DNA of 64,000 bases from an uncultured Gammaproteobacteria bacterium (GTDB lineage Bacteria > Pseudomonadota > Gammaproteobacteria > UBA9214), in the NCBI GenBank assembly GCA_963827755.1, contig CAWHCQ010000010.1:1999-65998 (forward strand). Reading direction: 5' to 3'. The notes beneath the pieces are model-generated. The model searched no databases. It was not told the DNA's origin and saw nothing but the letters and a program-made list of their open reading frames with translations. This document shows, piece after piece, positions 20,541 through 62,886 of this stretch. A program made the translations under genes and the position numbers. Each line of letters opens with the position of its first letter. Position 1 is the stretch's first letter.

Positions 20541-20825
20541 ATGAGCCGTATCGTGAATTGTGTCGTCCTCAAGCGCGAAGCCGAAGGGCTGGAATCCGTC
20601 CCGCACCCGGGATCACTGGGTGAGCGCATCTACGAGAATGTTTCCGCGGAAGGCTGGAACAAGTGGCTGGAGCGCCTGACCATGATCATCAATGAGAATG
20701 GCCTGAATACCGGCGACAAACAAAGCGTGGAGCTGATCGAAAAGCACATGGTTGGCTTTCTGTTTGGCGAAGGCGATTTCGGCTCGGTCCCGGAAGGCTT
20801 CAAACCCCCGGGCGCCAAGAAGTGA
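20541..20825 (+). CDS. yggX: oxidative damage protection protein (Fe(2+)-trafficking, YggX family)
   Basis: Start at ATG 20541 after GAGGA. MSRIVNCVVLKREAEGL...GWNKWLERLTMIINE. The stop TGA lies in the first heptamer of element E1. Confidence 0.85.
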   Translation: MSRIVNCVVLKREAEGLESVPHPGSLGERIYENVSAEGWNKWLERLTMIINENGLNTGDKQSVELIEKHMVGFLFGEGDFGSVPEGFKPPGAKK

Positions 20826-21012
20826 GAAGTGAGAAGTGAAAGTGAAGAAGTGAAGAGTAAAGAGTGATTTGTAGCGAAAGCCGGACGTCCGTTCACTTCT
20901 CACTTCTCACTTCTCACTTCTCACTTCTCACTTCTCACTTCTCACTTCTCACTTCTCACTTCTCACTTCTCACTTCTCACTTCTCACTTCTCACTTCTCA
21001 CCTCTAACTTCT
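20822..21012. repeat. heptamer-hairpin element E1: degenerate (GTGAGAA)-type arm, spacer, 15 perfect + 2 degenerate TCACTTC units
   Basis: Left arm 20822-20867. Spacer contains the palindrome CGGACGTCCG (20882-20891). Perfect TCACTTC x15 at 20893-20997, then TCACCTC and TAACTTC. Confidence 0.95.
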
Positions 21013-22391
21013 ATTTTCAGCAGTGGCGCTACCACGATGTTCAGCGCCTGGTGCGCTGCACGCAGGGCCGCCTCGGCCTGTTCTGCCGTCGGCGCGCAGG
21101 CAAACATAAAGCCCAGGTAACTGCTGCCCTCCGGCAGTGGCACCAGTTCATAGCCTTCACGAATATTAATCAGGATCTCTTTTACAAACGGCACGGCTCG
21201 CGCCGCTGTAATCCCTTCCACACGCCGCATAATGCCGGCCTCGGCAATCGGAATCATCAGCACCCCTGCGGCACCGGTCTGCGCCTGCATTTCCAGTGGT
21301 TTCCCGGTCGCATGCGCAATCACCAGCGACTCGAGACTGTGTCCGGTGCCGTAGCTGAGCAGGCGGGCACATTCGCCGCCAATGGTGCGGCTGGCGACTT
21401 CAAGGACGATGCAGCCCTCATTTGATAATCGCAGCTCGGCATGCACCGGCCCCTCGCCCAGGCCAAGCGCCCTGCAGGCGGCTGTTACGCAGCTGACAAT
21501 TTTTTCCTGCCAGGCCTCGCTGTGGCGCGAGGGCGTAATGTAATAGGTTTCTTCAAAAAACGGCCCGTCCATTGGATCGGGCTTGTCAAAAATCGCCAGC
21601 ACCTTGAGGCTGCCCCCGCTTAACAAGCCTTCCAGCGCCACCTCGGGTCCCGCTACAAAGCGCTCGACCAGTACATGCGATGCCACAAATTCATCATCCT
21701 GGTCCTCGCCGGCGAGTATGTGCTGTATCCGTGCACAGGCGGCCAGCAACTGTTTCTGTGTATCAGCGCGGATTACCCCGCGACTGGCGGAAAGCGACAG
21801 GGGCTTTACCACGCAGGGAAATACCAGCCCTTCGAGCTGCGGCCCGAGCGGCCCGGCAAGGTTTACAAGGCGAAATTCCGGGACGCCGACCCCGGCCCTG
21901 GCCAGCACTTCGCGGGACAGGTCCTTGCGGTGTGAATAACGTGCGGCTTCGACGGGGTTATGCGGCAGTTCCAGTGCCGCTGCGATGCGACTCCCCAGCT
22001 CAACGGTTGTATCGTCAGTCGCCAGAACACCGCAGAAAGGACGTTGCCGGTTTGCGGCCAGCAACACGTCAACAGCAGCCGGATCAGACAGGTCCACGTG
22101 CAGGCCGCCGGCAAGTTCCCCGACCAGTGAGAATTTTCCCTCGGAGGCCACCAGTACATCCACCCCGTGGAGCCGTGCCGCCTCGAGAAACGCGGCTGTT
22201 CGATAACTGCCGGGGGGCGCGATCAGCAACAGGCGCGGAGTTGTTTGCACCGTTGTGGCCGTATTCTGAAAAGTCCCGAAAGCGTGCAAGGCGTGGTGTA
22301 TATCGACTGGAAGATCTGCCCAGTCAGACTGGATACGTGAACCGCGTTTTTTACTGCAGCCTGAACTAACAGCGATGCGGCACCCGGACAA
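20991..22391 (-). CDS. ATP-grasp domain-containing protein (substrate unknown); start uncertain
   Basis: ATP-grasp core: [73 protein letters not shown]. An in-frame GTG near 22250 ([14 protein letters not shown]) is a possible alternative start. The C-terminal ...EVRGEK and stop are encoded by E1. Confidence 0.7.
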
Positions 22392-22476
22392 GGAAACGGC
22401 TTGCAGACCAACGCCTGCAAGCCGCTAACCCTTATACACAGTTTGTGTTCGCCAGCTGCGCGCGGGCTGCCGCCTG

Positions 22477-22884
22477 TCAGGCGCAACCGCCGCCGGCAGA
22501 ACCGCAGGCACCACAGGTGCCGGAGCCACCGGTCATGGAAAATGCATTATTGAAGACGAAACTGGCACCGGTCGGGCGCTCCACGTAGTCGATTTCAACG
22601 CCGCGCAAGTAATTCATCGCCACCGCATCGACAAAAAGATCGAAACCTTCTTCCTTGCGCACGCAGTCATACTCATTCTGCGAATCCGTAAATGTCATGC
22701 CATAACCCATGCCGCCACAACCGCCGCCTGACACAAATACGCGGATGGCCTTGAGATCCTCATCTTCCGCCTGCTTGATCAGTTCGCTCATTTTCTCGCG
22801 CGCGGCGGCCGTCAACGCCAGAGTCGATTCCGCCAGCTCCACACTGAAACCGCCTGTTGCTAATGACTGTGCTGCCTGTGACAT
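22477..22884 (-). CDS. HesB/IscA family iron-sulfur cluster assembly accessory protein
   Basis: 135 aa; IRVFVSGGGCGGMGYGMTF; Cys/Gly-rich C-terminus GSGTCGACGSAGGGCA. Confidence 0.8.
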   Translation of the reverse strand: MSQAAQSLATGGFSVELAESTLALTAAAREKMSELIKQAEDEDLKAIRVFVSGGGCGGMGYGMTFTDSQNEYDCVRKEEGFDLFVDAVAMNYLRGVEIDYVERPTGASFVFNNAFSMTGGSGTCGACGSAGGGCA

Positions 22885-23101
22885 ATCAAGCTCCGTTATT
22901 TGCCTGCTTAAAAAGAAGAATATCAGTTAGATACAATATAATCGCTGGAACCGATCCATGCCAGCCTCCCTGAATGGGTGGTCACTCAAGCGCCGTTCGA
23001 CACCCGCCGGTCAGCTCCATATTTGCAATCAAAACAGTCACCTGTCTGATCCAGACACCCCAGGGCAAGGCGCCGCGTTCGTATATGAACCAATTGTTAA
23101 T

Positions 23102-23120
23102 GATAATGATTTGTATTTAC
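23102..23120 (+). promoter_or_regulatory. candidate Fur box upstream of the porin/FMN-binding/PepSY locus
   Basis: GATAATGATTTGTATTTAC matches 13 of 19 positions of the consensus GATAATGATAATCATTATC (the first 9 match exactly). It lies in an AT-rich region ~55 nt upstream of ATG 23175. Confidence 0.35.
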
Positions 23121-23174
23121 TTTAATATTCCGTAGAATATTAGCAAATGTTCATAAACACACACGGAGTTACCC

Positions 23175-24491
23175 ATGAAACGCGCAACCCCATTGCTGGC
23201 CTTGTTGCTCCTGCCGCTGGTCTCGGCCAGCCTGTTTGCCGACGAGGCGCCCGCCACGCCCACGCTCGAGCAACTCTGGGACATCATCCAGGCACAACAG
23301 GCAGAGATTGAACGCCCTTAAAAAGAAACAGGCGGCCACCGCTGCAACGGCCTCGGCCGCCGATGAAAAGGCCGAGGCGGCCGTCGTTGCCGTGGAGGAA
23401 TCCGCCACCCTATACCGCGAGCGCCGGGAGCTGGGCCGAGCGCACAACCATTGGTGGCTATGGTGAAATGCATTACAACAATATCGATGCAGACGATTCT
23501 TCCAGGGACCAGAAGGAAATCGACTTTCACCGCTTCGTACTGTTTTTCGGTCACGAGTTTACAGACGATCTGCGTTTCTTCTCCGAACTCGAGGTTGAAC
23601 ATGCACTCACCAAGGACAATGTCTGTGATTTTACAGTACCGGCGGGCGGTCTCGCTCCCGGTGATGAGATATGCGATGGAGCATCCAATCCCGGTGAAGT
23701 GGAAGTGGAGCAGGCCTATATTGAGTTCGACATCAATGATCAACTCAGCACAAAGGGTGGCATTTTCATCCTGCCGGTCGGCATCATGAACGAGACCCAT
23801 GAACCGAACACCTTCTATGGTGTTGAACGTAATGATGTCGAAAATATCATCATACCTGCCACATGGTGGGCAGGCGGTGCCGCGATCAGCGGACACCATG
23901 CCAACGGTATCAGTTGGGATCTCGCCATCCATGAAGGGCTGAAGATGCCAACGACCGGCGGCAGTGCATTTCGGGTGCGCAGTGGCCGCCAAAAGACCTC
24001 GGAAGCACTCGCCGACAAGCTGGCATATACCGGTCGCGTGAGATACACCGGTGTCGCGGGCCTTGAAGTCGGTGCTTCCGTCAACTACCAGACCGATCCT
24101 TCACAATCAGGCAGTGACGGTCTCGATGACGGTATTCTGTACGAGACCCATGTGGCCTATCAGAAAGGACCCTTTGCCTTGCGTGCGCTGTACGCGGAGT
24201 GGGATTTCGACGGTTCAGCCGTTAAGGCCGCGAAAGCCGATGACCAGAGCGGCTGGTATCTTGGAACCCAGCTTCAAGCCGCGCGATGATGTTGGTTTGT
24301 ATGCCCGTTACGAGGATATCGACGCCGCCCGCTCCCGTGACAAGTTCGACCAGTGGGAAGTTGGTATAAATTTCTGGCCACACGAGGATGTCGTCCTGAA
24401 AGCGGACTACCGCAGCCGTGATCATGACCTGGCGGCCGAATCCGGCAGGGATTTCGATGCTTTTGATCTGGGCATTGGCTACCAGTTTTAA
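23175..24491 (+). pseudogene. outer-membrane porin, at least three +1 frameshifts
   Basis: Signal peptide MKRATPLLALLLLPLVSASLFA from ATG 23175 after ACGGAG. The frame breaks at CCC 23315-23317 and again near 23400. The body is in ORF 23363..24289 (WAERTTIGGYGEMHYNN...). The last break is at CTTGGAACC (~24260), with the C-terminus in ORF 24051..24491 ending FDLGIGYQF. Confidence 0.65.
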
Positions 24492-24529
24492 AATACAGCC
24501 AACAGTTTGTTCTGTTACTTTGTATCTCA

Positions 24530-25060
24530 ATGATCACCCGGGCATGCCTGTTACTAATCACCTCGCTGCTGGCCGGACATGCGCTGGCCGGCAGCATCTA
24601 CCAGTCGCCGGAAAAATTCCTCGACGAAGTATTTGACGGTAACCCGCCGACGCCTGCCGTACTCTGGTTACAGGGAGATATCAGGGAAAACGCAAAGGAG
24701 ATTCTCGGACACCGTTACCCGGGACTGCGGCTACGCTACTGGTTAAAGGACAACAGAACAGCATGGATACTCGAGGAAATCGGCAAGGACAAGCCCATCA
24801 CGGTGGGACTGGTTGTCAAGGACAATACACTGGAGCTCATCAGGGTGCTCATCTTCCGGGAAAGCCGTGGATGGGAGGTACGTTACCCCTTCTTCACCGA
24901 CCAGTTCGAGGGCGCGGGACTGGCCGATAATCACAAGCTCGACCGGCATATTGACGGCATCTCGGGCGCGACCCTGTCTGTTCGCGCACTGAAAAAGCTG
25001 GCGCGCCTGGCACTCTACCTGCACAGAAGGACAATCGTCTCCGATGACCCGGCGCAATAA
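24530..25060 (+). CDS. FMN-binding domain-containing periplasmic protein
   Basis: 176 aa; signal peptide; HIDGISGATLSVRA FMN_bind motif. Confidence 0.65.
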   Translation: MITRACLLLITSLLAGHALAGSIYQSPEKFLDEVFDGNPPTPAVLWLQGDIRENAKEILGHRYPGLRLRYWLKDNRTAWILEEIGKDKPITVGLVVKDNTLELIRVLIFRESRGWEVRYPFFTDQFEGAGLADNHKLDRHIDGISGATLSVRALKKLARLALYLHRRTIVSDDPAQ

Positions 25061-25827
25061 AAACCGCATCAAGTTGTTGCGTTCACTGTACGTATGGCAC
25101 CGCTATATGGGGCTTACGGCTTCACTGTTTGTCGTCATGCTGACAATCACCGGCCTGGCGCTTGAACCACACTGAAGAACTGGGACTGGACTCCAGCAGT
25201 GTCCGCTCCGATACCCTGCTCGACTGGTATGGCATTCATGCGCCTGACATAAAGAACAGCTACCGGGCAGGTGCACACCGTGTCACTGAGGTCGGTGAAA
25301 ACCTGTACTGGGATACGCTGAAAATCCCCGGGCGTGGCAGCACCACTCATCGGCGCCGTTGAATATTCAGACCTCATCGTCATCGGCATCGATGGACCAG
25401 TTGCTGTTATTCACAACAGGAAGGAGAACTGATCGAACAGCTGGATAGTGCAACCGGGGTACCTTCCGGCATGCAGGCAATCGGGCTGACGGCGGATGGA
25501 AACCTGGCAATCAGGGCGGCGCAGGGTTATTACCGGACCAATGCCGATTTTATCGAGTGGCATCAAACCGAAAGCCTTGCTGCCACATGGGCACGCAGCG
25601 AAAAGCCGTCCCTGCAGTTTGAACAGGCATTAAAGACAAGCTGGCGCGGCACTGGTCTACCGCTGGAACGCGTCATGCTGGACCTGCATAGCGGCCGTAT
25701 CCTCGGCAGCTGGGGTGTCTACCTGGTGGATGCAGCCGCCGTCCTGTTCCTGATGCTGGCAGGCAGCGGCGTCTGGTTATGGGGCAAACGCCGCGCCAGC
25801 TGCCCGCCAGCACCGGGCGTAAAGTAA
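25044..25827 (+). pseudogene. PepSY-associated TM helix protein, about three frameshifts
   Basis: MTRRNKNRIKLLRSLYVWHRYMGLTASLFVVMLTITGLAL from ATG 25044. It continues in ORF 25162..25362 (NHTEELGLDSS...), then a third frame (GVAAPLIGAVEYSDLIVIGIDG), then ORF 25471..25827 (...LDLHSGRILGSWGVYLVDAAAVLFLMLAGSGVWLW). Confidence 0.6.
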
Positions 25828-25972
25828 AAAGTGAGAAGTAAAATGTAGTAGAGTTCCAGCGCAAAGCTGAACACCATCACTCTCACCTCTCACGTCTCAC
25901 TTCTCACTTCTCACTTCTCACTTCTCACTTCCCTTCACTTCTCACTTCTCACTTCTCACTTCTCACTTCTCC
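25819..25972. repeat. heptamer-hairpin element E2
   Basis: Short left arm GTAAAGTAAAAAGTGAGAAGTAAAATG. Right arm of ~12 TCACTTC-type units (25876-25972), with two perfect runs of 4. Confidence 0.9.
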
Positions 25973-29208: not shown

Positions 29209-29296
29209 GGGAATGGTTCCAGTAATTAACGGTTAGAAAGTCTGTTCCGGCTATTGACTGGCAGTCAGTCAGCCCAACCCGGAAACAAAATACCGG

Positions 29297-32567: not shown

Positions 32568-32635
32568 GCACGAAAGGACTGCAATAACAGAGTTTCCTTG
32601 ACTTGCGTGCGTCCCGCCCGTACAGTTTCCGCAGC

Positions 32636-32828
32636 TTAGTTTCAGGTGTCCCACGGACCTCCGTCCAAGGGATGAAACGGGAAGCCGGTGCGTCAACACA
32701 ATGACAAGTCCGGCGCTGCCCCCGCAACGGTAAGCGAGCATAGGTGAATCGAATATACCACTGCGCATGACGCGGGAAGGTGATTCACCGGGTACCAACC
32801 CGCTCGCAAGCCCGGAGACCGGCCTGAA
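32636..32828 (+). promoter_or_regulatory. cobalamin (B12) riboswitch preceding btuB
   Basis: Conserved blocks AACGGGAAGCCGGTG, GCTGCCCCCGCAACGGTAAG, CCACTG...GGGAAGGTG, and a B12 box AGCCCGGAGACCGGCC (32809-32824). It ends ~110 nt upstream of the receptor start. Confidence 0.85.
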
Positions 32829-32937
32829 ACCACATGCATGTATCGCGAGGGGCGATGCTGGCAGTGGAATACTTCTTCCTGTCATTGTCATTCTCCTTCT
32901 GCACTGATCAAACTTCAGCACGGGGTCGTGCTGTGGC

Positions 32938-35051
32938 ATGGAGAAGACAATGACAATCCGTTCCGTTATCGTGATGCAGATCCTGCTTGCAGGACTGTGT
33001 TGCGGCAATGCCGCTGCAAATACCCTGTCATCCGGCAATATCCTGGTCACCGCCACACGCATTAACACCGGGGGGCTCGGTGCCCGCGGTCATACCACGG
33101 TGATTACCGCGGAGGATATCGGGAAAAGCACGGCACGCACCCTGCCGGAACTGCTGGGCCGTGAGGCCGGCGTTGTTACACGCAGCCTGTTCGGCAATAA
33201 CGGCACCGGTGCCACGGTTGATATTCGCGGCTTCGGCGCGGCGTCGAGTCAAAACACCCTGATCCTGCTGGACGGACGACGCCTGAATGACGTGGATTTT
33301 TCCAGCGTTGATTTCAGCGTCATACCCCTGCAAAGCATCGAGCGTATCGAGATCATGCGCAACAGCGGCGCGGTACTCTATGGTGATGGCGCGATTGGCG
33401 GCACCATCAACATCATCACCCGGCATCCGCTGGAAAGCGGCACAGACGGCTTTCATCAAGGCAGGTGCAGGCAACCTGGATAGCCGGCAAGTGGACGCGC
33501 ATGCAAGCCACAGCAGCGGCCCGCTTGCCGTGTTTCTCGGCGCACATGGCGCCGGAAGTGACGGCTACCGCGACCACAACGACCTGGACCAGCGCAGCGT
33601 CAACGCCGACATCCGCTACACGCGTGATAACGGCGAATTATTTCTCAAGCTTTATGGTTTTGAACAGGACCTCGATCTTCCGGGCGAGCGCAAGGTCAAT
33701 CCGGGAACCGGGATCAACGAACTCAAGTCCGACCGCAGGGGTACCGGCACCCCGCGAGACTTCGGCAACCAGGATGGCTACGTGATCAATCCCGGTTATA
33801 CCCACTACTGGGAGAATGGCAGCGAGGCCGTGTTCGATTTCAGTTACCGTCACAAGAACCAGCAGGCCTTTTATGATGATTACCTGTTTGGCGGCTTGTT
33901 TGCCAGCCACCTGGATACCGATCTCGATACCTGGTCATTCACACCACGCATCCACCAGCCCCACCGTCTGCTTGGCAGACAGGCAACAACCACTGCGGGC
34001 ATTGATTATTACAACAGTGACTACCATTCCGACCGTTCATTAAATCCTGCAACAGACAGCGCACCCATACATCAACTGGATGCCGAGCAGAAATCCACCG
34101 CCGTGTATGCCGATACAGTGATTGCTGCCAGTGAAGACATCACGCTTAACCTGGGTGCCCGCCTGCAATGGGTAAAACTGGAGGCCAGAGACCGTTTCGA
34201 TCCGACCGCACCGGGTGCCGATCCCGTTTCCGATGGTCCGGCACCGCGCCTGTCCGACAGTCAGCGGGTACACATGCTGGAGGCCGGTATCGAGAAACAG
34301 ATCAACCCGGCCACGGCTGCCTATATCAAGTTTACCCGCAGCGCCCGCGTGACCACTGTGGACGAGATGTTTGAGTCGAGGTTTTTCTTTGACCCGGCCA
34401 CGTTTGCCTTCACGGGAACCAGGATATTCTCGCCACTGGACCCGCAGACCGCTAACGGCCTTGATATCGGCACCCGCTATGACACTGGCAAACTGTCGCT
34501 CAATGCCAATGCCTATTACATGCGGCTGAAAAACGAGATCCACTTCAACCCGATCACCTTTGAGAATATCAACCTTGATCCGACGAAACGCTACGGGATT
34601 GAATTAGGCGCCGCCATTGATCTTACAGACCGGTTACGCCTGCAAGGTAATTACACCTGGATGCGCGCCAGGTTCCGCGACGGACCATTCTCCGGAAACA
34701 ATGTACCCCTGGTCCCGGAAAACACGGCCAGCCTGGCAGCGAGCTGGGAACAGTCGGCAAACACTGAATACAGGGTTGCAGTCAATTACACCGGCGAAAA
34801 ATACTTCGATAATGACCAGGCCAACAGCTTCGGCAGAAAGATCCCTGCCTACACCACGGTCGATGCCAGGGCCAGCCACCATGCTTGCGGGATTCCAGCT
34901 GGGCGTCGAGGTCAACAATATATTTGAAGAAGAGGCTATCGACTACGGTGTCAGCAGCGTATCCACCGCCGGTGTGTACAATGCCTATCCATTACCGGAA
35001 CGGACTATACTGTTCACCGTTTCCAGGGCACTCGGCCGCAACAATCAATGA
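32938..35051 (+). pseudogene. btuB: TonB-dependent vitamin B12 receptor, two frameshifts
   Basis: Signal peptide; TonB box NILVTATR; plug domain in ORF 32938..33483. Barrel in ORF 33287..34927, with the break near 33450. The last strands are in ORF 34617..35051 (...AYPLPERTILFTVS), with the break near 34870. A riboswitch lies upstream. Confidence 0.8.
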
Positions 35052-35724: not shown

Positions 35725-36297
35725 ATGGGCAACCGGCTCTCAAAGATATACACGCGCACCGGCGATGACGGCACCACCGGCCTTGGTGACGGTTCACGCG
35801 TTGCCAAGGACGATCCGCGAGTCGAGGCCATGGGTGCGGTTGACGAACTGAACTGCGCCATCGGGGTCCTGCTTGCCCATGAACTGCCGGTAGCTGTCCA
35901 GCTTTCACTGACCGGCATCCAGCACAGGCTGTTTGATCTCGGCGGCGAACTCTGCATCCCCGATACCAGCTGCATCACGGATGAACACGTTGCAGGGCTG
36001 GAACAGTTACTCGATGAACTCAATGCAGACCTGCCGGCCCTGAAGGAATTCATCCTGCCGGGCGGCTCCGCGGCCGCGGCGGCCTGCCACCTGGCCCGTG
36101 CCATCTGCCGTCGCGCCGAACGGCGTACCCACAGCCTCGGCAAGCAGGCAGGCATCAACCCGGCTTCCCTGAAATACCTGAACCGGCTCTCCGACCTGCT
36201 GTTTGTGATGGCCCGGCACCTGAACAAACAGGCCGGTGTAGCCGATGTTTTCTGGAAGCATGAAAAGAAAGGTGAGAGAGTGAGAAGTGAGAAGTGA
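35725..36297 (+). CDS. PduO-type ATP:cob(I)alamin adenosyltransferase
   Basis: 190 aa; IYTRTGDDGTTGL, DPRVEAMGAVDELN, FILPGGS. The last residues GERVRSEK and the stop are encoded by element E3. Confidence 0.85.
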   Translation: MGNRLSKIYTRTGDDGTTGLGDGSRVAKDDPRVEAMGAVDELNCAIGVLLAHELPVAVQLSLTGIQHRLFDLGGELCIPDTSCITDEHVAGLEQLLDELNADLPALKEFILPGGSAAAAACHLARAICRRAERRTHSLGKQAGINPASLKYLNRLSDLLFVMARHLNKQAGVADVFWKHEKKGERVRSEK

Positions 36298-36489
36298 AGA
36301 GTGAAGAAGTGAAGGTGAAGAATACGGAAGAAGTGAAAAGTAAGATGCTTAAGAATGATTTTCGTGTACTTCACGTGGATTCCGTGGCTATTACTACTTC
36401 ACTCTTCACTTCTTACTTCTCACTCTTCACTTCTCTTCACTTCTCACTTCTCACTTCTCACTTCTCACTTCTCACTTCTCACTTTCTCA
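36272..36489. repeat. heptamer-hairpin element E3 with a half core (TTTTCGTGTACTTCACGTGGATTCCGTGGCTAT, 36359-36391)
   Basis: Left arm 36272-36322 (GTGAGAG/GTGAGAA/GTGAAGA units). Right arm 36393-36489, ending in 5 near-perfect TCACTTC units. Confidence 0.93.
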
Positions 36490-41525: not shown

Positions 41526-41684
41526 GGTGAGAAGTGAGAAGTGAAAGTGAAAAGTGAAAAGTGAGGAGTGAAAGTGAAGAAGCGGGGTGAAGTTGGCTGT
41601 TACGTCGATAGCGAACCACTCATCTATTCTCACTTCTTCACTTCTCACTTCTCACTTCTCACCTCTCACTTCTCACTTCTCACT
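41526..41684. repeat. heptamer-hairpin element E4 (no GTGGATTCCGTGG core)
   Basis: Left arm 41526-41592 (GTGAGAA x2, then GTGAAAG/GTGAAAA/GTGAGGA variants). Spacer 41593-41626. Right arm 41627-41684. Confidence 0.93.
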
Positions 41685-44969: not shown

Positions 44970-45065
44970 GGGCCAACTGTAGGAGCCAGCGCCAGCTGGC
45001 GAACCCCGCACCAAACCATCGCCAGCCCTTCGCCAACCCTTCGCCAGCTGGCGCTGGCTCCTGCA
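44966..45065. repeat. REPIN-like inverted REP pair (GTAGGAGCCAGCGCCAGCTGGCGAA class)
   Basis: GTAGGAGCCAGCGCCAGCTGGCGAA (44979-45003) faces TTCGCCAGCTGGCGCTGGCTCCTGCA (45040-45065). An extra GTAGGGGCC head sits at 44966. Confidence 0.7.
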
Positions 45066-49677: not shown

Positions 49678-49826
49678 AGAAGTCCTGAGAAGTGAGAAGT
49701 AAGCAAGTACACAGCCAGGTGACTGTTTCTGAATGTAATGGCCACGGAATCCACGGATGCACACTTAAAACTAAAGTCATTAACTGACTTTTCACTTCTC
49801 ACTTCTTCACTTCTGACTTCCGTGGC
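49678..49826. repeat. heptamer-hairpin element E5 (short arms) with a half core ATGGCCACGGAATCCACGGATG (49739-49760)
   Basis: Left arm CAGAAGTCCTGAGAAGTGAGAAGTAAGCAAG. Right arm TTTCACTTCTCACTTCTTCACTTCTGACTTCCGTGG. Confidence 0.85.
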
Positions 49827-52677: not shown

Positions 52678-52680
52678 CCC

Positions 52681-54668
52681 TTACTCGATGATGACCATCG
52701 AATCCAGGGCGTCGGACGGAAGCGTCACCGAAGTCGATGTCATATCACCCAGCGGGGGTAATACCGGGTGCTTCTCGCTCGGCAACAGGTTAATGCCGTC
52801 ATCGTCCGCCCCCTGTTGCAAGGTCCGAATGTGGTTGTATTTGGTATTCGTATAAAACCTGGACATGGTGGCATCACGCAGGATAACGGGATGTATAAAT
52901 ACCATCAGGTTGGTCCGGGTGACATCGGCTGTCCTCGAGGTAAACAATTCACCAATGTACGGAACATAACCCAGCAAGGGCACCCTCTGAATATCCTCAC
53001 CGACCGTTTCTTCAATCAATCCACCGAGCACCACCATATCTGAATCATCAACCATCACGGTCGTCTTGATGGAGCGTTTGTTGGTAACGATATCGGAGGC
53101 ACCCGCCACGCTCGGGGCGATGCTGGAGACTTCCTGCTCGATCTCGAGCCGCATCGCATCGCCTTCATTGATTTGCGGCTTGATCTTCAGCGTCAGGCCA
53201 ACATCCTGGCGCTGTATGGTCTGGAACGGGTTGGTGGCACTGTCACCTGCCCCGGTACTGGTAAACGAGCCTGTGAGAAAGGGGACATTCTCACCAATAA
53301 TGATCTCGGCCTCCTCGTTGTCCAGGGTAACCAGTGTCGGCGTAGAGAGGATATTGTTATTGGTATCCGATGCAATCGCATTGAGCACACCAATATAGTT
53401 AAAACTGTTGCTGTTGGTCCGCCCGAAGCCAAGCAGGGCATTATCGACGATTGCAGGGAAAAGCACCGCCCGTCCGCAACGCTGGCCGCACCGTTGACGA
53501 TATCCGATATCAGGCTGCCGCTGTTGGTGAAGTTGATCAACCCGACCGGGCCGCTGGAATCCTGCGCACCGTTGAATATCCACTGCACCCCCAGCTCACG
53601 CGCGGTGTCTTCGGTCACCTCCGCGATAATTGCCTCTACCAGTACCTGGGCCCGACGAATATCAAGCTGGCTTATGACGCGTCTGAGCGTGCGCATGATA
53701 TCCGGTGGCGCGGTAATCACCAGTGCATTGGTGGCTTCATCGGCCTGGATATCAAAGGAGTTGCGGCTGGCGGACGCCTTGCCCTGCTGCGCCCCGCGCT
53801 CCTCGAGCTTGCCGACGCCCATCAGGGTGCCTACAAGATCTGCGGCCACGGCGTAATGAAGGTAGACGACGTCCGTGTTGCCACCACTATCCAGCGGTGT
53901 ATCCAGGTGCGAGATCAGCGCCCGCATTCTCAGCCGCGTAGCGCGGTCACCGCCCAGCAGCACGCTGTTGGTACGCTCATCTGCAACCAGCACCTGTCCA
54001 CCCGCAGCGGCACCGGGTGACTTGGCCTTTACCCCCGCAACACGATTAAGACTGGTCAGCACGCGGACAACTTCAGTGGCCGATGCGTGCTGCAGCGGGA
54101 TGATCTCGATTTCACTGTCGCTGACCTGATCGATTCGACGAATAATACTGACAAGGCGCTCTACGTTCCTCGCGCGGTCGGAAATGATCAGTACGTTGGT
54201 TGCCGGGTAAGCCGCCAGGTGTCCCTGCTGTGGTATCAGTGGCCGTAATATCGGCACCAGCTGGGCCGCGGTGACATTATCAACCTGTACCACACGGGTA
54301 ACCATTTCATCACCCTGGCCCGGACTCCTGTCAGTTACCGTCGGAATACCATCCTGCTTTGCATTCACGTCCGGTACGATCTTGATGACCTCGCCACTCG
54401 GTACGGCGGCAAATCCATGTACCTTCAGGATAGACAGAAAGACCTGGTAGACCTCTTCACTGTTCATTGGCCGCGACGAGATCACCGTCACCTTGCCCTT
54501 GACCCGCGGATCAACGATAAAATTCCTGTCCGTCACCGCCGAGACCGTACTGATAAGCGCACCGATATCGGCATCATTCAGATTCAGGGTGACAGTCTCT
54601 GCATGCAGTGGCAGCGACAAAACCAGCCAGGCCAACAGCAGCCATATATTTTTTAACTGTAACTTCAT
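52681..54668 (-). pseudogene. gspD: type II secretion system secretin GspD, one frameshift
   Basis: N-domains are in ORF 53193..54680 (ATG 54668: MKLQLKNIWLLLAWLVLSLPLHA...). The secretin domain is in ORF 52681..53583 (...STPTLVTLDNEEAEIIIGENVPF...). The frames join at GACGGGCGGTGC (plus-strand CCC 53469-53471); one extra G would restore ...VADGAVLFPAIV... Confidence 0.85.
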
Positions 54669-54765
54669 TACGTGTCCCACAACCGTCGTCGCGCTCCGTT
54701 TTACATCCCTATCAGTCTTTATATCGTTAGCTTGAAGGTACTGCTTGAGTAAATCAAATATATCA

Positions 54766-55665: not shown

Positions 55666-55692
55666 CCTTTATACATAAATCAACTGCGTCCG

Positions 55693-56982: not shown

Positions 56983-57461
56983 AATTTATTTACACCGGGC
57001 CCGTTAGCGGGGTCATTTTTGGCAGGATTTCATATTATATTTCAAACGCTTGCTAATATGCCACGTTTGTTTTCAGGATGGCCCGCCTGCCCCGGCTATA
57101 GACGCCTGCAAACAGACGGCGGTGAGTGCAAAAAATTGCGGCCTGCATACCTGGAAACACCAGCCCGGGTTATGGACCCTGCAGGCGTGCATGCTGTTGG
57201 CAAAGGATACAGAAAATATTCACGACAGGCTTGTAATATGAACAGATTTAGGCTGAAATACACACATAGAGAAAACGCGTGCAATTGACAGCGTGCACCG
57301 AGATATCAATCAGCCCGTCATGGCTGGACGTTTCCGTTTACAAGAATCACAACACGCCGCATAGCGGTATCCCATTCTGTACGAACATCGTGAACATGGC
57401 ATGTTCCGGCTTCCACCGAATGTATGCAGCGTAACCATTTCAACACAGGAGAATACCTACA

Positions 57462-57788
57462 GTGAGTGAACACATTATCTATGTGACTGATGATACATTT
57501 GAAGCAGAAGTCATAAACTCCCCCGACCCTGTACTGGTCGATTACTGGGCTGAATGGTGTGGACCCTGCAAGATGATCGCTCCAATCCTGGATGAAATCG
57601 CAAGTGAATATAACGGCAAGGTGCGCATCGCCAAGCTGAATATCGACGACAACCCGCAAACACCGCCCAAGTACGGAATCCGTGGAATCCCGACGCTGAT
57701 GCTGTTCAAAGGCGGCAATGTCGAGGCCACCAAGGTAGGCGCACTTTCCAAGTCACAGCTCACCGCATTCATCGACAGCAACATCTGA
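57462..57788 (+). CDS. trxA: thioredoxin
   Basis: 108 aa; GTG start after [15 protein letters not shown]. Confidence 0.95.
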
Positions 57789-57946
57789 CTGAAATGATTG
57801 CTACGAAATCCAACTGCAAGAAAACTACATGACAAACAGAATATACCGGGACAGCTGCACAGCCAGCTAACCCGGCGTTAGCACACATCCCACCGGCCTG
57901 ACAGGCCACTTCAACTATTCACAATGACACATATCAAAGGCTACTT

Positions 57947-59204
57947 ATGAACCTGTCCGAACTTAAACTGAAACCGGCTGCCGAGCTGGTTGAAATAGCA
58001 CAACAAATGGGCGCAGAGGGTACCGCGCGCTCCAGAAAACAGGACATCATCTTTTCCATCCTCAAATCGCATGCAAAAAAAGGCGAGGATATTTTCGGCA
58101 GCGGTGTTCTGGAAATACTGCAGGACGGGTTCGGTTTCCTGCGTTCTGCAGACAGCTCCTACCTCGCGGGCCCGGATGATATTTACGTATCTCCAAGCCA
58201 GATCAGGCGTTTCAGCCTGCGTACCGGCGATACCGTGGATGGAAAGATACGGCCGCCGAAGGACAGTGAACGTTACTTTGCATTGCTCAAGGTCGATGCA
58301 ATCAACTACGAGAAACCTGAAAACGCCAAGAACAAGGTTGCCTTTGAAAACCTGACGCCGCTCCACCCCAATAAAAGACTGGTACTGGAACGCGGCAACG
58401 GCAGCACCGAAGACATTACCGCTCGCATCATTGACCTGGTCGCACCCGTGGGCACTGGGGCAACGCGGCCTGATCGTGTCGCCGCCCAAGGCCGGTAAAA
58501 CCATGCTGCTGCAGAATATCGCACAATCAATCGCATCGAATTACCCGGACGTGTACCTGATTGTGCTGCTGATCGACGAGCGTCCCGAGGAAGTCACCGA
58601 GATGTCGCGCTCGGTAAAGGGCGAAGTGGTGTCCAGCACCTTTGACGAACCGGCAAGCCGGCATGTACAGGTCGCCGAAATGGTCATCGAGAAGGCGCGC
58701 CGCCTGGTAGAACACAAGCACGACGTCGTCATCCTGCTCGACTCCATCACCCGTCTCGGCCGCGCCTACAATACCGTCGTACCTTCATCCGGCAAGGTAC
58801 TGACCGGCGGTGTCGACGCCAATGCGCTGCAACGCCCGAAACGCTTCTTCGGCGCCGCACGCAACGTCGAGGAAGGCGGCAGCCTGACCATCCTGGCAAC
58901 CGCGCTGGTCGACACCGGTTCGCGCATGGATGACGTCATCTACGAGGAGTTCAAGGGTACCGGCAACCACGAGATCCACCTGGAGCGCAGGATCGCCGAA
59001 AAACGCGTCTATCCCGCGATCAACCTCAACCGCTCCGGCACCCGCCGCGAAGAGCTGCTGACCGACCCGAAAGAGCTGCAGAAGATGTGGATACTGCGCA
59101 AGCTGCTGCACCCGATGGACGAGCTGGCCGCCATGGAATTCCTGCTCGACAAGCTGAAATCAACCAAGAGCAATGCACAGTTCTTTGAATCGATGAAGCG
59201 GTGA
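57947..59204 (+). pseudogene. rho: transcription termination factor Rho, split by a single +1 frameshift in a G4 run (probably a sequencing artefact)
   Basis: ORF 57947..58498 holds the N-terminal and RNA-binding domains ([15 protein letters not shown]...DLVAPVGTG). ORF 58431..59204 holds [22 protein letters not shown] and the rest of the ATPase. Removing one G from GGGG 58457-58460 gives an uninterrupted APVGTGQRGLIV. Confidence 0.9.
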
Positions 59205-59462
59205 GAGCGGTGAAGTAGCGTGAGAGTGAAGTGAGAAGTGAGAAGTGAAAAGTGAAGAGTGAAGAGTGAGAAGTTAAGAGTAATGAGCGACGGTCCAGTA
59301 ATAATCAGGCTCCCTAATGCCCGGTTTAATTTTTCGTGTTCTTCCGTGGATTCCGTGGCCATTAAGGTTTTATCTCTCCCTACTCGTACTTCTCAGCTTA
59401 TTCACTCTTCACCCTTATCACTTCACCTTTCACTCTCACTCCTACTTCTCACTTCTCACTTC
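59200..59462. repeat. heptamer-hairpin element E6 with a half core TTTTCGTGTTCTTCCGTGGATTCCGTGGCCAT (59331-59362)
   Basis: Left arm 59200-59287 (12-13 GTGAGAA-type units, 2 perfect). Right arm ~59380-59462 (degenerate, 2 perfect units). Confidence 0.93.
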
Positions 59463-60555
59463 CAAGATTCCGCAACCGGTTCATCCGCAACTCCAGCGGC
59501 GGGTGCGTCGCCATCAGGCTGCTGGACTTCTCCCTGAAGTTCCTGAACGGGTTGACAATGAACATGTGCTGCGTCGCCCGGTTGGCCCCGGCAAACGGGC
59601 GCGCCTGGGTCGCCAGCTTTTCCAGTGCGGATATCAGGCCTTGCGGGTGTCGCGTCAGGCGCACGCTGGTGGCGTCTGCAAGAAATTCCCGCTGCCGGGA
59701 TACCGCCATTTGCACCAGCAGGGCAAAGATCGGCGCCAGTGCGGCAAACGCCATCAGGGCAATCACCAGGAATGCCGCCCCCCCGCCCGCACGCCCGGAG
59801 CGGCGTGAGCGCCCGGAAAAATACAGCGAACGCAACGCGCCGTCGCTCACCAGCGCAATCAGGCCGACGATGACGCCCACCGCCGTCGCATAGCGGATAT
59901 CCCAGTTGACGATATGCCCCATCTCGTGGCCGATCACCCCCTGCAGCTCTTCGCGGTTGAGGGTATCCAGCAGGCCCCGGGTAACCCCGATGGCCGAGCG
60001 TGCCGGGCTCATTCCGGTGGCAAAGGCATTCAGCGCATCGGTCTCGATCACGTAGACACGCGGCTTGCGGATGCCCGCGGCAATCGCCATTTCCTCCACC
60101 ACGTTGTGCAACTGCGGCGCCTCGGCCGCGGACACTTCCGCGGCACCGGTCAGGCGCAGCACAATCCGGTCACCGACACGAAAGGTTATCCACGACCAGA
60201 GGGCGCCGATGACGAGCAACACCAGCGCGCACCAGATTCCCCAGCGGCTGGCGAACCAGATGTCCTCGACACCGGCAGGGACGACACCCAGCACCAGCTG
60301 CAGGGTCCAGCCCAGCAGGTATCCGAGGACCACGAGAATGAAAAGCAGGAACAGCACCAGCCGGCGAGTGGCCTTTTGATTGGCGCGCGCCGCGGCCAGG
60401 AAATCCGTGCGCCGCAACACCTTGTTGACCATGCGCGGACTTTCCTGCCAGTTGCTTTGCAGCGGGGCGCCGCACTGGCGGCAGGTGCTGGCGTGCGCGC
60501 GATTTGCCGCGGCACATTCAGGACACGGCTTGTTGTGTGAGGATGTCATCCGCAA
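59449..60555 (-). CDS. M48 family zinc metallopeptidase (HtpX-like) with an N-terminal zinc-ribbon
   Basis: 368 aa; CPECAAANRAHASTCRQCGAPL; TM helices; HEMGH. The C-terminal ...NLGSEK and stop are encoded by E6. Confidence 0.8.
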   Translation of the reverse strand: MRMTSSHNKPCPECAAANRAHASTCRQCGAPLQSNWQESPRMVNKVLRRTDFLAAARANQKATRRLVLFLLFILVVLGYLLGWTLQLVLGVVPAGVEDIWFASRWGIWCALVLLVIGALWSWITFRVGDRIVLRLTGAAEVSAAEAPQLHNVVEEMAIAAGIRKPRVYVIETDALNAFATGMSPARSAIGVTRGLLDTLNREELQGVIGHEMGHIVNWDIRYATAVGVIVGLIALVSDGALRSLYFSGRSRRSGRAGGGAAFLVIALMAFAALAPIFALLVQMAVSRQREFLADATSVRLTRHPQGLISALEKLATQARPFAGANRATQHMFIVNPFRNFREKSSSLMATHPPLELRMNRLRNLGSEK

Positions 60556-60602
60556 CCTTTATTTAAAGGCTCTTCCCAAAATCAAGAGGGTAGATAACCG
60601 TT

Positions 60603-60624
60603 GTAGGGCCGAATTCATTCGGCC
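60603..60624. repeat. single REP-like palindrome (GTAGGGCCGAATTCATTCGGCC)
   Basis: GTAG head followed by GGCCGAAT/ATTCGGCC inverted arms, between lemA and the M48 gene. Confidence 0.5.
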
Positions 60625-60639
60625 AACAACCTTGTCAAA

Positions 60640-61206
60640 TTAACGCAGATCAACCCCGGGTATCGCCGCCTCGGCTTCCGGCACTTCGAAGTACGTCGCC
60701 TCCCTGAACCCGAACATGCCGGCAATGATATTGGAGGGGAATTCCTGCACGCCGTTATTGAGCGCCATCACGCTGTCATTGTAAAACTGCCGGGAAAAGG
60801 AAATCTTGTTTTCTGTCGCACTCAATTCTTCCATGAGGCGGGCAACGCTCTCGTTGGCCTTCAGGTCAGGGTAGTTTTCCATCAGGGCAAACAGCTTGCC
60901 CATGGCGCCCCCGAGCAGGGTCTCCGCCGCAATCGCCTCTTCCGTACTGCCGGCAGCGACCGCCTGGTTACGCGCCTGGATGACCTTTTCCAGGGTCTCC
61001 TGCTCGTAGGACATGTAGTCCTTCACCACTTCCACCAGGTTGGGAATGAGGTCATGCCGCCGTTTCAGCTGCACATCGATCTGCCGCCAGGCATTCTTCA
61101 CCTGGTTGCGCAAGTTCACCAGGCGGTTGTAAAGCAGCATGCCCGCCAGGGGGATGCCGATGATGATTGCTACGATGATCCAGCCGAATATTTCCATTTT
61201 AAACAC
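60640..61206 (-). CDS. lemA: LemA family protein
   Basis: 188 aa; N-terminal TM; YNRLVNLRNQVKNAWRQIDVQLKRRHDLIPNLVE. Confidence 0.88.
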   Translation of the reverse strand: MFKMEIFGWIIVAIIIGIPLAGMLLYNRLVNLRNQVKNAWRQIDVQLKRRHDLIPNLVEVVKDYMSYEQETLEKVIQARNQAVAAGSTEEAIAAETLLGGAMGKLFALMENYPDLKANESVARLMEELSATENKISFSRQFYNDSVMALNNGVQEFPSNIIAGMFGFREATYFEVPEAEAAIPGVDLR

Positions 61207-61218
61207 CTCTGGTAAACA

Positions 61219-61432
61219 GGTGAAAAGTTAGAAGTGAAGAGTGAAAGTGCAAGACCATGATAGCCACGGAATCCACGAAAGAACACGGAAAAACTATTCT
61301 TAAGGTATTTATCTTTTCGTGTTCTTTCGTGGATTCCGTGGCCATTACACTTCACTTCTCACTTCTCACCTCTCACTTCTCACTTCTCACTTCTCACTTC
61401 TCACTTCTCACTTCTCACTTTTCACTTCTCCC
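61219..61432. repeat. heptamer-hairpin element E7 with the complete palindromic core (61260-61345)
   Basis: Left arm 61219-61253. Core ATAGCCACGGAATCCACGAAAGAACACGGAAAA / ~20-nt loop / TTTTCGTGTTCTTTCGTGGATTCCGTGGCCAT. Right arm of 11 TCACTTC-type units (61352-61428), 6 of them perfect in a row. Confidence 0.95.
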
Positions 61433-62705
61433 GGTCCAGGGCACGATAGCCGATATCCGTCCGATAAAAGGCATCAGGCCAGTGAATCCGCTCGACACAG
61501 GCATAGGCCCTGTCCCTTGCCTCGCGAATAGTAGCACCCAGGGCACAGACACACAGCACACGCCCGCCGCTGGTCACGATGGCGCCGTTTTGCTCCTGCG
61601 TACCGGCATGGAATACCTTGCAGTCGTCATCATCGACTGGCGGCAAACCCTCGATGACATCGCCCTTGCGGTACTGTTCCGGATAGCCGCCGGCGGCCAT
61701 GACCACGCCCAGCGCGGTACGCTCATCCCATTGCACATCGACATCGTCGAGCTCGCCGTCAACCGTGGCCAGGCAGAGTTCGACCAGGTCGGACTGCAGG
61801 CGCAGCATCACCGGCTGGGTTTCCGGGTCGCCGAAGCGGACGTTGAACTCGAGCACCTTCGGCGTGCCATCGGCCGCAATCATCAGGCCGGCATAGAGAA
61901 AACCGGTAAACTCATTGCCCTCTTCCGCCATTCCGCGGATCGTCGGCCGCATGACCTCCCGCATGACCCGGCGATGAATGTCCGCTGTTATGACCGGGGC
62001 CGGTGAGTAGGCGCCCATACCCCCGGTATTCGGACCTGCATCACCGTCATCACGCGCCTTGTGGTCCTGCGAGGTCGCCAGGGGCAGGCAGTGGGTGCCA
62101 TCCACCATCGCGATAAAGCTGGCTTCCTCGCCTTGCAGGAATTCCTCAATCACGACGCGGTGCCCGGCCTCGCCGAACACGTTCCCGCCAAGCATGTCGC
62201 TGACGGCCGCGATCGCTTCATCCACGGACTGCGCCAGGATAACGCCCTTGCCCGCGGCCAGCCCGTCGGCCTTCACCACGATCGGGGCGCCCTGCTCGCG
62301 GATATAGGCAGCGGCCTTGTCGATATCGGAAAAACTGGCGTACGCGGCCGTGGGAATCCCGTGGCGGGCGAGAAAGTCCTTGCTGAAGGACTTGGAACCT
62401 TCCAGCTGCGCGGCCGCGCGGGTGGGGCCGAAGCAGCGCAGGTCGGCGGCCCTGAAGCGGTCGACGATACCGGCGACCAGCGGAACCTCGGGGCCGACAA
62501 TGGTCAGCCCGACTTCATTGTCCGTGGCGAAGGCAAGCAGGGCATCGATGTCGGTGGCCTCGATCGCGACGTTCTCCACGCGCGGCTCCCGTGCAGTCCC
62601 GGCGTTGCCCGGCGCCACGAACACCGTATCCGCCCGCGAGGATTGCGCCGCCTTCCATGCCAGGGCGTGTTCGCGCCCGCCACTGCCGATGATAAGAATA
62701 TTCAT
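61422..62705 (-). CDS. purD: phosphoribosylamine-glycine ligase
   Basis: Start at ATG 62705 after AAGGAAAAAA (MNILIIGSGGREHALAWK). The ORF-track extension to 62786 is a translation of E8. The C-terminal ...LDREK and stop are encoded by E7. Confidence 0.93.
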   Translation of the reverse strand: MNILIIGSGGREHALAWKAAQSSRADTVFVAPGNAGTAREPRVENVAIEATDIDALLAFATDNEVGLTIVGPEVPLVAGIVDRFRAADLRCFGPTRAAAQLEGSKSFSKDFLARHGIPTAAYASFSDIDKAAAYIREQGAPIVVKADGLAAGKGVILAQSVDEAIAAVSDMLGGNVFGEAGHRVVIEEFLQGEEASFIAMVDGTHCLPLATSQDHKARDDGDAGPNTGGMGAYSPAPVITADIHRRVMREVMRPTIRGMAEEGNEFTGFLYAGLMIAADGTPKVLEFNVRFGDPETQPVMLRLQSDLVELCLATVDGELDDVDVQWDERTALGVVMAAGGYPEQYRKGDVIEGLPPVDDDDCKVFHAGTQEQNGAIVTSGGRVLCVCALGATIREARDRAYACVERIHWPDAFYRTDIGYRALDREK

Positions 62706-62726
62706 GGTTTTTTCCTTTGGAAAAAA

Positions 62727-62886
62727 GTGAGAAGTGAGAAGTGATAAGTGAAGGGTGATAGAGTGAAGCGGAAGAACGCAGTACAATTACCTCTTCGATT
62801 TACCTTTTACTTCTCACTTCCGTACACTTCTCACTCTAACTTCTCACTTCTCACTTCTCACTTCTCACTTCTCACTTCTCACTTCA
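62727..62886. repeat. heptamer-hairpin element E8, lying between purH and purD
   Basis: Left arm 62727-62778 (GTGAGAA x2, GTGATAA, GTGAAGG...). Spacer with a GCGGAAGAACGC remnant. Right arm includes 6 perfect TCACTTC units (62844-62885). Confidence 0.93.

Follow-up and report, generated by a model that had tools for sequence, protein, structure and literature searches.

What kind of repeat builds long hairpins from tandem heptamers at one gene end after another? The question is raised by a 64,000-nucleotide stretch of DNA from an uncultured sediment gammaproteobacterium of the UBA9214 lineage (GenBank assembly GCA_963827755.1, contig CAWHCQ010000010.1, positions 1,999 to 65,998), referred to here in its full length as the window. 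A sequence-only reading had described eight copies of a composite element (E1 to E8) in its last 43 kb, each made of a GTGAGAA-type array, a spacer and a TTCTCAC array, and could not assign them to a known repeat family. With a probability of roughly 60%, these elements represent a dispersed, non-autonomous, hairpin-forming family of simple sequence repeats (SSRs): a new GTGAGAA unit type of the heptamer SSR or short tandemly repeated repetitive (STRR) class, closest to the inverted heptamer pairs of Xanthomonas, and with a role like that of repetitive extragenic palindromic (REP) sequences and bacterial interspersed mosaic elements (BIMEs). The architecture class is already described. What appears to be new is the GTGAGAA unit, its spread in one fixed arm order over multiple phyla, the way its arms overlap gene ends, and the nesting of a second repeat resembling a REP doublet forming a hairpin (REPIN).

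Eight heptamer hairpins at gene ends

On the forward strand, the order of purine array, spacer and TTCTCAC array was read at all eight loci, and Tandem Repeats Finder reported period-7 arrays of up to 17 copies at each of them. The purine arms include the unit variants GTGAAAG, GTGAAGA and GTGAAAA. A search for the TTCTCACTTCTCAC dimer with at most one mismatch returned 56 matches in the window, all of them within the eight loci, against 0.01 expected from 100 dinucleotide-preserving shuffles. The eight loci and their coordinates were borne out. The elements and their gene contexts are as follows; the core is a second repeat found within some of the spacers.

20822–20867 (+): E1 purine arm, two GTGAGAA units followed by GTGAAAG/GTGAAGA variants; holds the TGA stop codon of the Iron_traffic gene (20823–20825).
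20868–20892: E1 spacer (loop), 25 nt of unique sequence.
20893–21012 (+): E1 pyrimidine arm, 15 exact TTCTCAC units; overlaps the final 22 nt of the converging ATP-grasp ligase gene (stop at 20991).
25819–25972 (+): E2, with a degenerate purine arm (25819–25846), spacer (25847–25876) and pyrimidine arm (25877–25972, 8 exact units); overlaps the stop codon of the PepSY_TM gene (25827).
36272–36345 (+): E3 purine arm; covers the final 26 nt of the cobalamin adenosyltransferase gene (stop at 36297).
36346–36396: E3 spacer, with one nested core copy, CGTGGATTCCGTGGCT at 36374–36389.
36397–36489 (+): E3 pyrimidine arm, 7 exact units; covers the final 25 nt of the converging Peripla_BP_2 gene (stop at 36465).
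41526–41684 (+): E4, with a purine arm (41526–41582), unique spacer (41583–41626) and pyrimidine arm (41627–41684); lies between an SH3 protein gene (+) and ilvD (−, stop at 41680 within the arm), with a flanking A-run and T-run.
49678–49826 (+): E5, short arms (49678–49704 and 49787–49826) and an 82-nt spacer with a core copy at 49740–49755 (− strand); lies between a metallophosphoesterase gene (+) and gspF (−).
59200–59462 (+): E6, degenerate arms (59200–59285 and 59380–59462) and a core copy in the spacer at 59345–59360; lies between rho (+, stop at 59204 in the arm) and an M48 peptidase gene (−, stop at 59449 in the arm).
61219–61432 (+): E7, with a purine arm (61219–61250) and a pyrimidine arm (61349–61432, 8 exact units); lies between purD (−, stop at 61422 within the arm) and lemA (−, start at 61206, 12 nt from the arm).
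61260–61291 and 61314–61345: inverted core pair of E7, 32 nt and 94% complementary, with core copies at 61262–61277 and 61328–61343.
62727–62886 (+): E8, with a purine arm (62727–62768), spacer (62769–62804) and pyrimidine arm (62805–62886); lies within the purH–purD pair (purH stop at 62889; purD ATG at 62705, 21 nt from the arm).

Element lengths range from 149 to 263 bp, and the spacers, which are unrelated in sequence between window copies, span 25–98 nt rather than the 25–90 nt first claimed. As had been proposed, each element folds as one long hairpin, and does so on both strands, with an RNA free energy of −26 to −114 kcal/mol and a z-score of −3.2 to −12.2 relative to shuffled sequence. 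Since both arms share one unit, any register pairs and the stem survives unit changes, so the earlier remark that it can pair in many 7-nt registers follows directly. The arms themselves are unequal. TTCTCAC occurs 59 times in the window and GTGAGAA 16 times, the pyrimidine arm on the forward strand being long and near-perfect (up to 15 exact units) and the GTGARAA purine arm short and degenerate. At their edges, the elements grade into degenerate units with no sharp boundary visible, and no target-site duplication was seen.

The approximately 55 open reading frames (ORFs) of the window that were scanned with Pfam are ordinary chromosomal genes, and the elements reside at the 3′ ends of housekeeping genes. 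E1 to E6 lie between convergent genes, E7 (purD to lemA) and E8 (purH to purD) lie between genes on the same strand, and none of the eight lies between divergent genes. The description of all eight as intergenic needs to be amended, since the arms run into gene 3′ ends by up to 26 nt: of the 14 flanking 3′ ends, 10 have a stop codon that falls in the outermost arm units or no more than 5 nt from them. In PurD, the conserved carboxy-terminal Arg-Glu-Lys-stop (61422–61448 in the window, and orthologous positions in the relatives L389–L392, L120 and L121) is specified by a cGTGAGAAGTRA-like sequence. Its codons, cGTGAGAAGTAG, cGGGAGAAGTAA or cGTGAAAAGTGA, amount to a 1.5-unit heptamer seed, and the array starts exactly there; the tail of the window PurD (GRSEK, then stop) is partly coded by arm units.

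Turnover of arms and loops at orthologous junctions

Syntenic loci were compared from relatives with PurD identities of 93%, 86%, 85% and 80%. At the purH–purD junction, the window has (GTGAGAA)6 and a degenerate partner. L120 (93% PurD identity) has a homogenised (GTGAAGA)7 arm, another spacer and (TTCTCAC)8, L121 (85%) has inverted tandem octamers consisting of (GCGCAAAG)3 and its complement, L391 has two heptamers flanking a CACGGAA-type palindrome, and L390 has a small hairpin only. At the purD–lemA junction, heptamer hairpins are present in the window and L120, degenerate heptamer arms in L389, L391 and L392, and a GTAG-type REP hairpin in L390 and L121. Between the window and L120, the spacers of both E7 and E8 are unrelated; at the M48–rho junction (E6), the spacer is common to the two and the arms differ. 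Thus, at these three junctions, a hairpin of some kind is kept while the repeat family changes, the palindromes in relatives with 80–93% PurD identity being of the heptamer, octamer (GCGCAAAG), GTAG-REP or CACGGAA type.

The E5 junction (gspF–metallophosphoesterase) permits a closer comparison. Three relatives (L393, L394 and L395), with a gspF approximately 90% identical in nucleotides to that of the window, have an identical 19-nt loop without the core, purine arms of 11, 9 and 9 units, respectively, and pyrimidine arms that also differ in unit number. As judged from these sequences, the differing unit number around an identical loop supports slippage between close strains, and the comparison with the window agrees with the core having been inserted into the loop. 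The adjacent gspE–gspF spacer is an empty 74 bp in the window; in L393 and L394 it is 352 bp long and contains a palindrome with octamer arms.

Taken together, whole 7-nt units are gained and lost, variant units are amplified locally, and loops are quickly replaced. In L120, a giant composite at the fis–purH junction (4862–5207) runs from (GTGAGAA)9 through (AGTTAAG)17 to TTCTCAC units, from which it follows that a second heptamer unit can expand within one arm. The inverted tandem octamers (GCGCAAAG/CGCAAAGA) occupy 5145–5392 in L121 (purH–purD) and 2648–3001 in L393 and L394 (gspE–gspF), and octamer-armed elements sometimes enclose a gtcattccgg...ccggaatgac REP palindrome.

The sequence-only reading had allowed that the loci might be misassembled. 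This is unlikely: independent assemblies carry orthologous elements, and isolate genomes show the same architecture. The exact unit counts of any single assembly remain uncertain. In L389, a short-read scaffold, a run of N stands at approximately 3750–3880 of the purH–purD junction, exactly where relatives carry a hairpin, and the purH call is lost; heptamer repeats therefore break assemblies and annotation. The practical consequences of these arrays are that they overlap annotated stop codons, create spurious ORFs and break short-read assemblies.

The spacers of four elements (E3, E5, E6 and E7) contain a second repeat, the core (CGTGGATTCCGTGGCC/TTTTCGTGTTCTTCCGTGGATTCCGTGGCCATTA). With up to three mismatches allowed, five copies were found against about one chance match; all window copies of CGTGGATTCCGTGGCC lie inside heptamer elements and none elsewhere in the window. 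A scan of metagenome contigs found the core 20-mer in at least 120 stretches (L137–L256). Among the 96 listed core copies that could be analysed, 50 have an inverted partner and form a REPIN-like hairpin of about 90–100 bp, and just 5 have heptamer arms. The core is therefore independent of the heptamer elements. It is itself composed of tandem units of roughly 9–10 nt (TTCCGTGNN in TTTTCGTGTTCTTCCGTGGATTCCGTGGCCATTA) and is abundant in sediment metagenomes. The term composite was apt for the window elements, but the core had not been separated out: what had been taken as one element is the nesting of two independent hairpin families, one of which is REPIN-like.

Classical GTAG-type REP-like palindromes also occur in the window, at 44978–45065 (TGTAGGAGCCAGCGCCAGCTGGCGAA and its complement) and at 60556–60639 (TTGGCCGAATGAATTCGGCCCTACAA). 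A TTGGCCGAATGAATTCGGCCCTACAA-type palindrome is also found at the purD–lemA junction of the relatives L121, L122 and L390.

Distribution, arm order and rival explanations

A genome scan with (TTCTCAC)3, taking one genome per species, returned at least 119 stretches. Among the matches listed, the arrays fall in approximately 15 phyla, with several loci in many genomes, and include the isolates Lamprocystis purpurea DSM 4197, Hymenobacter piscis, Winogradskyella costae, Pseudoxanthomonas composti and Xylanibacter brevis. The full hairpin architecture occurs in at least nine phyla, with spacers that are unrelated in sequence and often palindromic themselves. By crude ORF calls, the context of the 119 listed loci is convergent in 28, tandem in 51, divergent in 9 and within an ORF in 20. 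The median distances of the arrays are 33 nt to the end of the gene upstream and 138 nt to the start of the following gene. The earlier expectation of a high copy number is plausible for the lineage: in 565 kb of related-lineage metagenome DNA, a sample not biased toward the heptamer, 29 of 32 period-7 arrays were GTGAGAA-like.

The listed loci hold 327 tandem arrays of period 7, compared to 23 of period 6, 42 of period 8 and 37 of period 9. While 243 of the 327 lie within two mismatches of GTGAGAA, 84 have unrelated units, several of which also form inverted pairs. Not all of the spread may be particular to the GTGAGAA unit. When phage contigs were searched for three consecutive copies of a heptamer, TTCTCAC was found in 14 stretches, composition-matched controls in 7–8 each, GGGAATC in 3 and TAACTGA in 107. 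TTCTCAC was therefore set aside as a uniquely special heptamer, being only about twofold above its matched controls; any heptamer forms arrays far above chance. Some high-GC viral contigs from IMG/VR (L125, L127/L134 and L129/L133) have two to seven GTGAGAA/TTCTCAC arrays each, including short terminator-like hairpins, and phages share the repeat with their presumed hosts and could help to spread the arrays.

The order of the arms is nearly invariant. Of 63 arrays in the listed loci with a partner within 350 bp, 60 are purine-first, 2 are opposite and 1 has partners on both sides. This order was compared across unit types using inverted tandem-array pairs in 2.75 Mb of retrieved sequence, in which the G-rich arm came first in 53 GTGAGAA-like pairs versus 2, and in 24 pairs of unrelated units versus 8; the latter also had the purine excess in the first arm (28 versus 8). 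Two candidate causes were rejected. A replication-strand origin of the arm asymmetry has a weak link to local GC skew (21 concordant, 12 discordant), and the asymmetry flips at purH–purD between close relatives. Read inward, (GTGAGAA)n presents TGA in all three frames and (TTCTCAC)n presents none; such a "stop-on-entry" rule fits the GTGAGAA family itself, whose arms overlap stop codons, but as a general rule it is contradicted by 10 unit types, with 7 in agreement and 15 uninformative. Telomerase-like 3′-end addition at breaks, a pyrimidine-excess triplex, or transcription-associated deamination are speculative sources of the polarity.

How an SSR family of this kind might arise and act can be outlined. 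The arms gain and lose whole units rapidly, as would be expected of replication slippage, with local amplification of variants, and the loop is unconstrained and is replaced or invaded by other palindromic repeats, here the REPIN-like CGTGGATTCCGTGGCC. Once transcribed, the element may act as REP and BIME sequences do, as a stable 3′-end or intercistronic RNA hairpin that blocks 3′ exonucleases; the hairpin may also be a site for RNase III and at most a partial, bidirectional terminator. With purine-first order, a polymerase approaching from either side would make a purine-rich 5′ arm and then a pyrimidine-rich 3′ arm. Hybrids of pyrimidine RNA with purine DNA are weak by established duplex stabilities, so the RNA:DNA hybrid would be weak at the moment of hairpin closure since the pyrimidine-rich RNA is made last. 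A REP/BIME-like 3′-end hairpin or partial terminator is the most likely role. If the polarity reflects transcription or selection at the RNA level, the elements would be a previously unrecognised 3′-end signal in phyla with scarce classical terminators. Three points raised by the family are testable: hairpins with a single unit and a single arm order are found in nine phyla or more, including in the cultured Lamprocystis purpurea and Hymenobacter piscis; the G-rich or purine-rich-first rule extends to unrelated units; and at orthologous junctions the repeat family that builds the hairpin is exchanged while a hairpin as such is retained.

Several points weigh against an SSR family with a REP-like role. 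Each functional step is inferred. Slippage alone cannot seed one unit at many junctions, and a copying mechanism is therefore needed in addition. Because TTCTCAC is about twofold above its matched controls in phage contigs, part of the cross-phylum spread may be generic to heptamers. The asymmetry of the arms tracks strand composition weakly and flips at one junction. A T-run of at least four within 15 nt of the hairpin, the canonical U-tract, is found in just 6 of 48 elements; in the window, a T-run is present at E3, E4 and E8. E7 and E8 cannot be strong terminators, unless a promoter lies inside the element, because they sit just upstream of a ribosome-binding site, 12 and 21 nt from the next start codon. 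Lastly, terminator-like sites are not clearly enriched in the genome. With T-runs rare and no clear enrichment, a canonical intrinsic terminator is a doubtful description of the elements. A terminator consensus scan reported none of them apart from a weak hit in the E6 spacer (59306–59323), with 60001–64000, and so E7 and E8, outside of the scan.

One alternative is a mobile element. Here the inverted arrays would serve as ends for a transposase encoded elsewhere that carries copies of the hairpin to further gene ends, such as a Y1 enzyme like the REP-associated tyrosine transposases (RAYTs), with slippage acting only after insertion, as in a REPIN or a miniature inverted-repeat transposable element (MITE). 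The same unit at eight junctions in 43 kb, its dominance among the lineage arrays (29 of 32), the several copies in many listed genomes and in phage contigs, sometimes several per contig, and the presence or absence of the related octamer palindrome at gspE–gspF (74 bp in the window versus 352 bp in L393/L394) all favor this explanation, as does the parallel with REPINs, in which paired inverted repeats of fixed orientation enclose a variable spacer (PMC3116915). Set against these are the fading of the arms into degenerate units with neither a target-site duplication nor a sharp boundary, the unrelated interiors and missing GTAG head, and the fact that REP sequences are normally lineage-specific whereas the GTGAGAA unit is common to many phyla. 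As the sequence-only reading had noted, no transposase or RAYT is visible; Pfam scans of the approximately 55 window ORFs identified no transposase, RAYT or reverse transcriptase. A cognate RAYT (Y1 transposase) was likewise not among these ORFs, a result that applies to the window only, RAYTs being single-copy genes. An all-against-all BLASTP comparison of 4,806 ORFs placed no protein family in more than 4 of the 119 listed loci, so no linked enzyme recurs. On balance, a mobile element is rather unlikely, though it is the strongest of the alternatives.

A pan-bacterial functional module, made up of the GTGAGAA/TTCTCAC inverted arrays and of purine-first inverted short-tandem-repeat hairpins at large, is improbable. 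It would be either a bidirectional "zipper" terminator or 3′-end element that is independent of a U-tract and has a selected polarity, or an undiscovered machinery working in 7-nt steps that writes the unit into gene ends in at least nine phyla. Either version, if true, would explain why heptamer repeats are over-represented in bacteria, an excess on record since 1990 and 2007 that has, to our knowledge, no accepted cause or function.

It is also quite improbable that the elements are functionless by-products, in which neutral, self-expanding microsatellites fill intergenic space and the hairpin and gene-end position are side effects. The expansion of arrays until they touch or overlap stop codons, the extreme turnover, and the readiness with which any heptamer unit forms arrays would agree with this, as would the published proposal that links heptamer slippage to the footprint of the polymerase (Mrazek 2007, as cited in PMC4692102). 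Three features are not expected from neutral slippage: inverted pairing, the 60:3 purine-first polarity with the same bias in unrelated units, and the persistence of a hairpin at the same junctions in relatives.

A 7-nt footprint could also mark a protein-binding array used for regulation or nucleoid structure, with the hairpin secondary, bound by cold-shock-domain proteins on the single-stranded pyrimidine arm or by a ribbon-helix-helix protein of the omega/MetJ kind on the duplex. CspB has a preference for heptamers like TTCTTTT, and the WATCACW heptads bound by the omega repressor are a single mismatch away from TCTCACT. The dominance of period 7, a unit conserved across phyla, a pyrimidine arm that often exceeds its partner and would leave UUCUCAC units single-stranded, and the cold-shock protein binding proposed for TAACTGA arrays (MacGregor 2015, PMC4679880) point the same way. 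Such binding is nonetheless the least probable explanation and very doubtful, since the coexistence of 84 unrelated-unit arrays and the commonness of arbitrary control heptamers argue against one sequence-specific binder, no linked gene was found in the listed loci, unit sequences drift freely within arms, and a gene 3′-end position is unusual for operators or centromere-like sites.

Other features of the window are given here for completeness.

32627–32841 (+): cobalamin riboswitch (Rfam RF00174, 108 bits), located 5′ of a TonB-dependent receptor gene (33287–34927) and adjacent to FecCD/ABC transporter and cobalamin adenosyltransferase genes, with which it makes up a B12 uptake and salvage cluster.
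206–919: tandem duplication with a period of 378 bp (1.9 copies, 89% identical) within a LysM/M23 peptidase gene (1–1725, +); from its sequence, an internal domain duplication in a putative cell-wall hydrolase.
52684–54686 (−): gspD (type II secretin), split over two reading frames; alignment to the intact 668-aa orthologue of L120 places a switch from frame −3 to −2 between 53493 and 53451, which would make it either a pseudogene or an assembly indel.

Comparison with known repeat systems

The sequence-only reading had set the elements apart from REP/BIME, enterobacterial repetitive intergenic consensus (ERIC), Correia and CRISPR repeats, and the search of Rfam agreed in that no curated family matched. 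At the gathering threshold, the cobalamin riboswitch was the only hit in the window; permissive settings added plant miRNA-precursor and other hairpin models at 24–41 bits, against thresholds of 73–100. A search of the accessible literature found no paper reporting a GTGAGAA tandem unit in bacteria. The elements thus remain without an Rfam family and with a unit that appears to be new, but their architecture is assignable, since stems of tandem 7-mers have been published (PMC4692102). The multicopy heptanucleotide families of Geobacter metallireducens were considered as a lead and dismissed as unrelated, their units (GGGACCG and MTYCTGA) being different. CRISPR arrays, in which identical direct repeats of 24–48 nt alternate regularly with unique spacers and cas genes are usually close by, are a poor description, as the 7-mers are contiguous and in inverted arrays, with no cas genes among the scanned window ORFs. 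MITEs have terminal inverted repeats, a target-site duplication and a conserved interior of fixed length, which do not accord with unrelated spacers, variable element lengths and fading boundaries. The heptamer SSR/STRR class does describe the elements: head-to-tail 7-nt units, dispersed loci that share one unit, and hypervariability at orthologous junctions.

Like bidirectional intrinsic terminators, the elements place a hairpin between convergent genes with a purine-rich or A-rich 5′ side and a pyrimidine-rich or U-rich 3′ side on both strands, and a T-run follows the stem at E3, E4 and E8 and at the purH–purD junctions of L120 and L121. They differ in having stems of 30–80 bp made of repeats instead of 5–12 GC-rich pairs, and in that E7 and E8 are directly upstream of the next gene in an operon-like arrangement.

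REP, BIME and REPIN sequences share with the heptamer elements an abundance of extragenic hairpins at gene ends and inverted repeats around a variable spacer. At the RNA level, REP sequences function as a 3′ hairpin, and the likely RNA effect of the heptamer elements is taken to be the same. In REPINs, which are mobilised by RAYT transposases, are non-autonomous and persist in lineages, paired inverted repeats flank a spacer that is more variable (Bertels & Rainey 2011, PMC3116915), and the elements are likewise inverted doublets with a spacer that form a long hairpin. In contrast to the fixed imperfect palindrome of approximately 20–40 nt with a 5′ GTAG that characterises a REP, the heptamer arms are tandem arrays of variable length with no GTAG head, and their unit is not specific to a lineage.

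Tandem heptanucleotides were described as STRR sequences in cyanobacteria (Mazel 1990, as cited in PMC4692102), and the over-representation of heptamer SSRs was attributed to slippage tied to the polymerase footprint in the work of Mrazek (2007), again as cited there. TAACTGA arrays are common to Beggiatoaceae, Cyanobacteria and Bacteroidetes with no evident transfer mechanism; most are "forward" and immediately precede start codons, and a single case among 170 sets is inverted (MacGregor 2015, PMC4679880). In the phage contigs analysed here, 8 of 119 scorable arrays in this comparison had an inverted partner (7 upstream and 1 on both sides). The GTGAGAA family resembles these systems in its dispersed and mostly intergenic tandem heptamers, in the several unit types per genome, and in the occurrence of the same unit in distant phyla. 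It differs in arrangement: the former are mainly direct arrays, whereas a typical GTGAGAA element has two arrays in inverted orientation at the 3′ end of a gene.

The closest counterpart is found in Xanthomonas campestris and X. axonopodis, in which GGGAATC arrays of 2–26 units occupy approximately 185 loci per genome, 70–75 of which are convergent inverted pairs able to form stem-loops with the G-rich arm first (Rehm et al. 2015, PMC4692102). Those arrays are intergenic, lying 28 nt from the upstream ORF end and 160 nt from the next ORF, with just 7–8% between divergent genes, and the same junctions in the two species have very different lengths and variants; they have no known function (PMC4692102). 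The GTGAGAA arrays are alike in their distances (33 and 138 nt), in the scarcity of divergent contexts (9 of 88 intergenic listed arrays), in their hypervariable arms, and in that all eight window elements are inverted pairs of one unit with the G-rich array first and form a stem-loop. They differ in that GTGAGAA is without G-runs and therefore without G-quadruplex potential, in that its arms often overlap the last codons of genes, and in that its loops host a second repeat family. While GGGAATC is found in one genus, GTGAGAA is found in many phyla.

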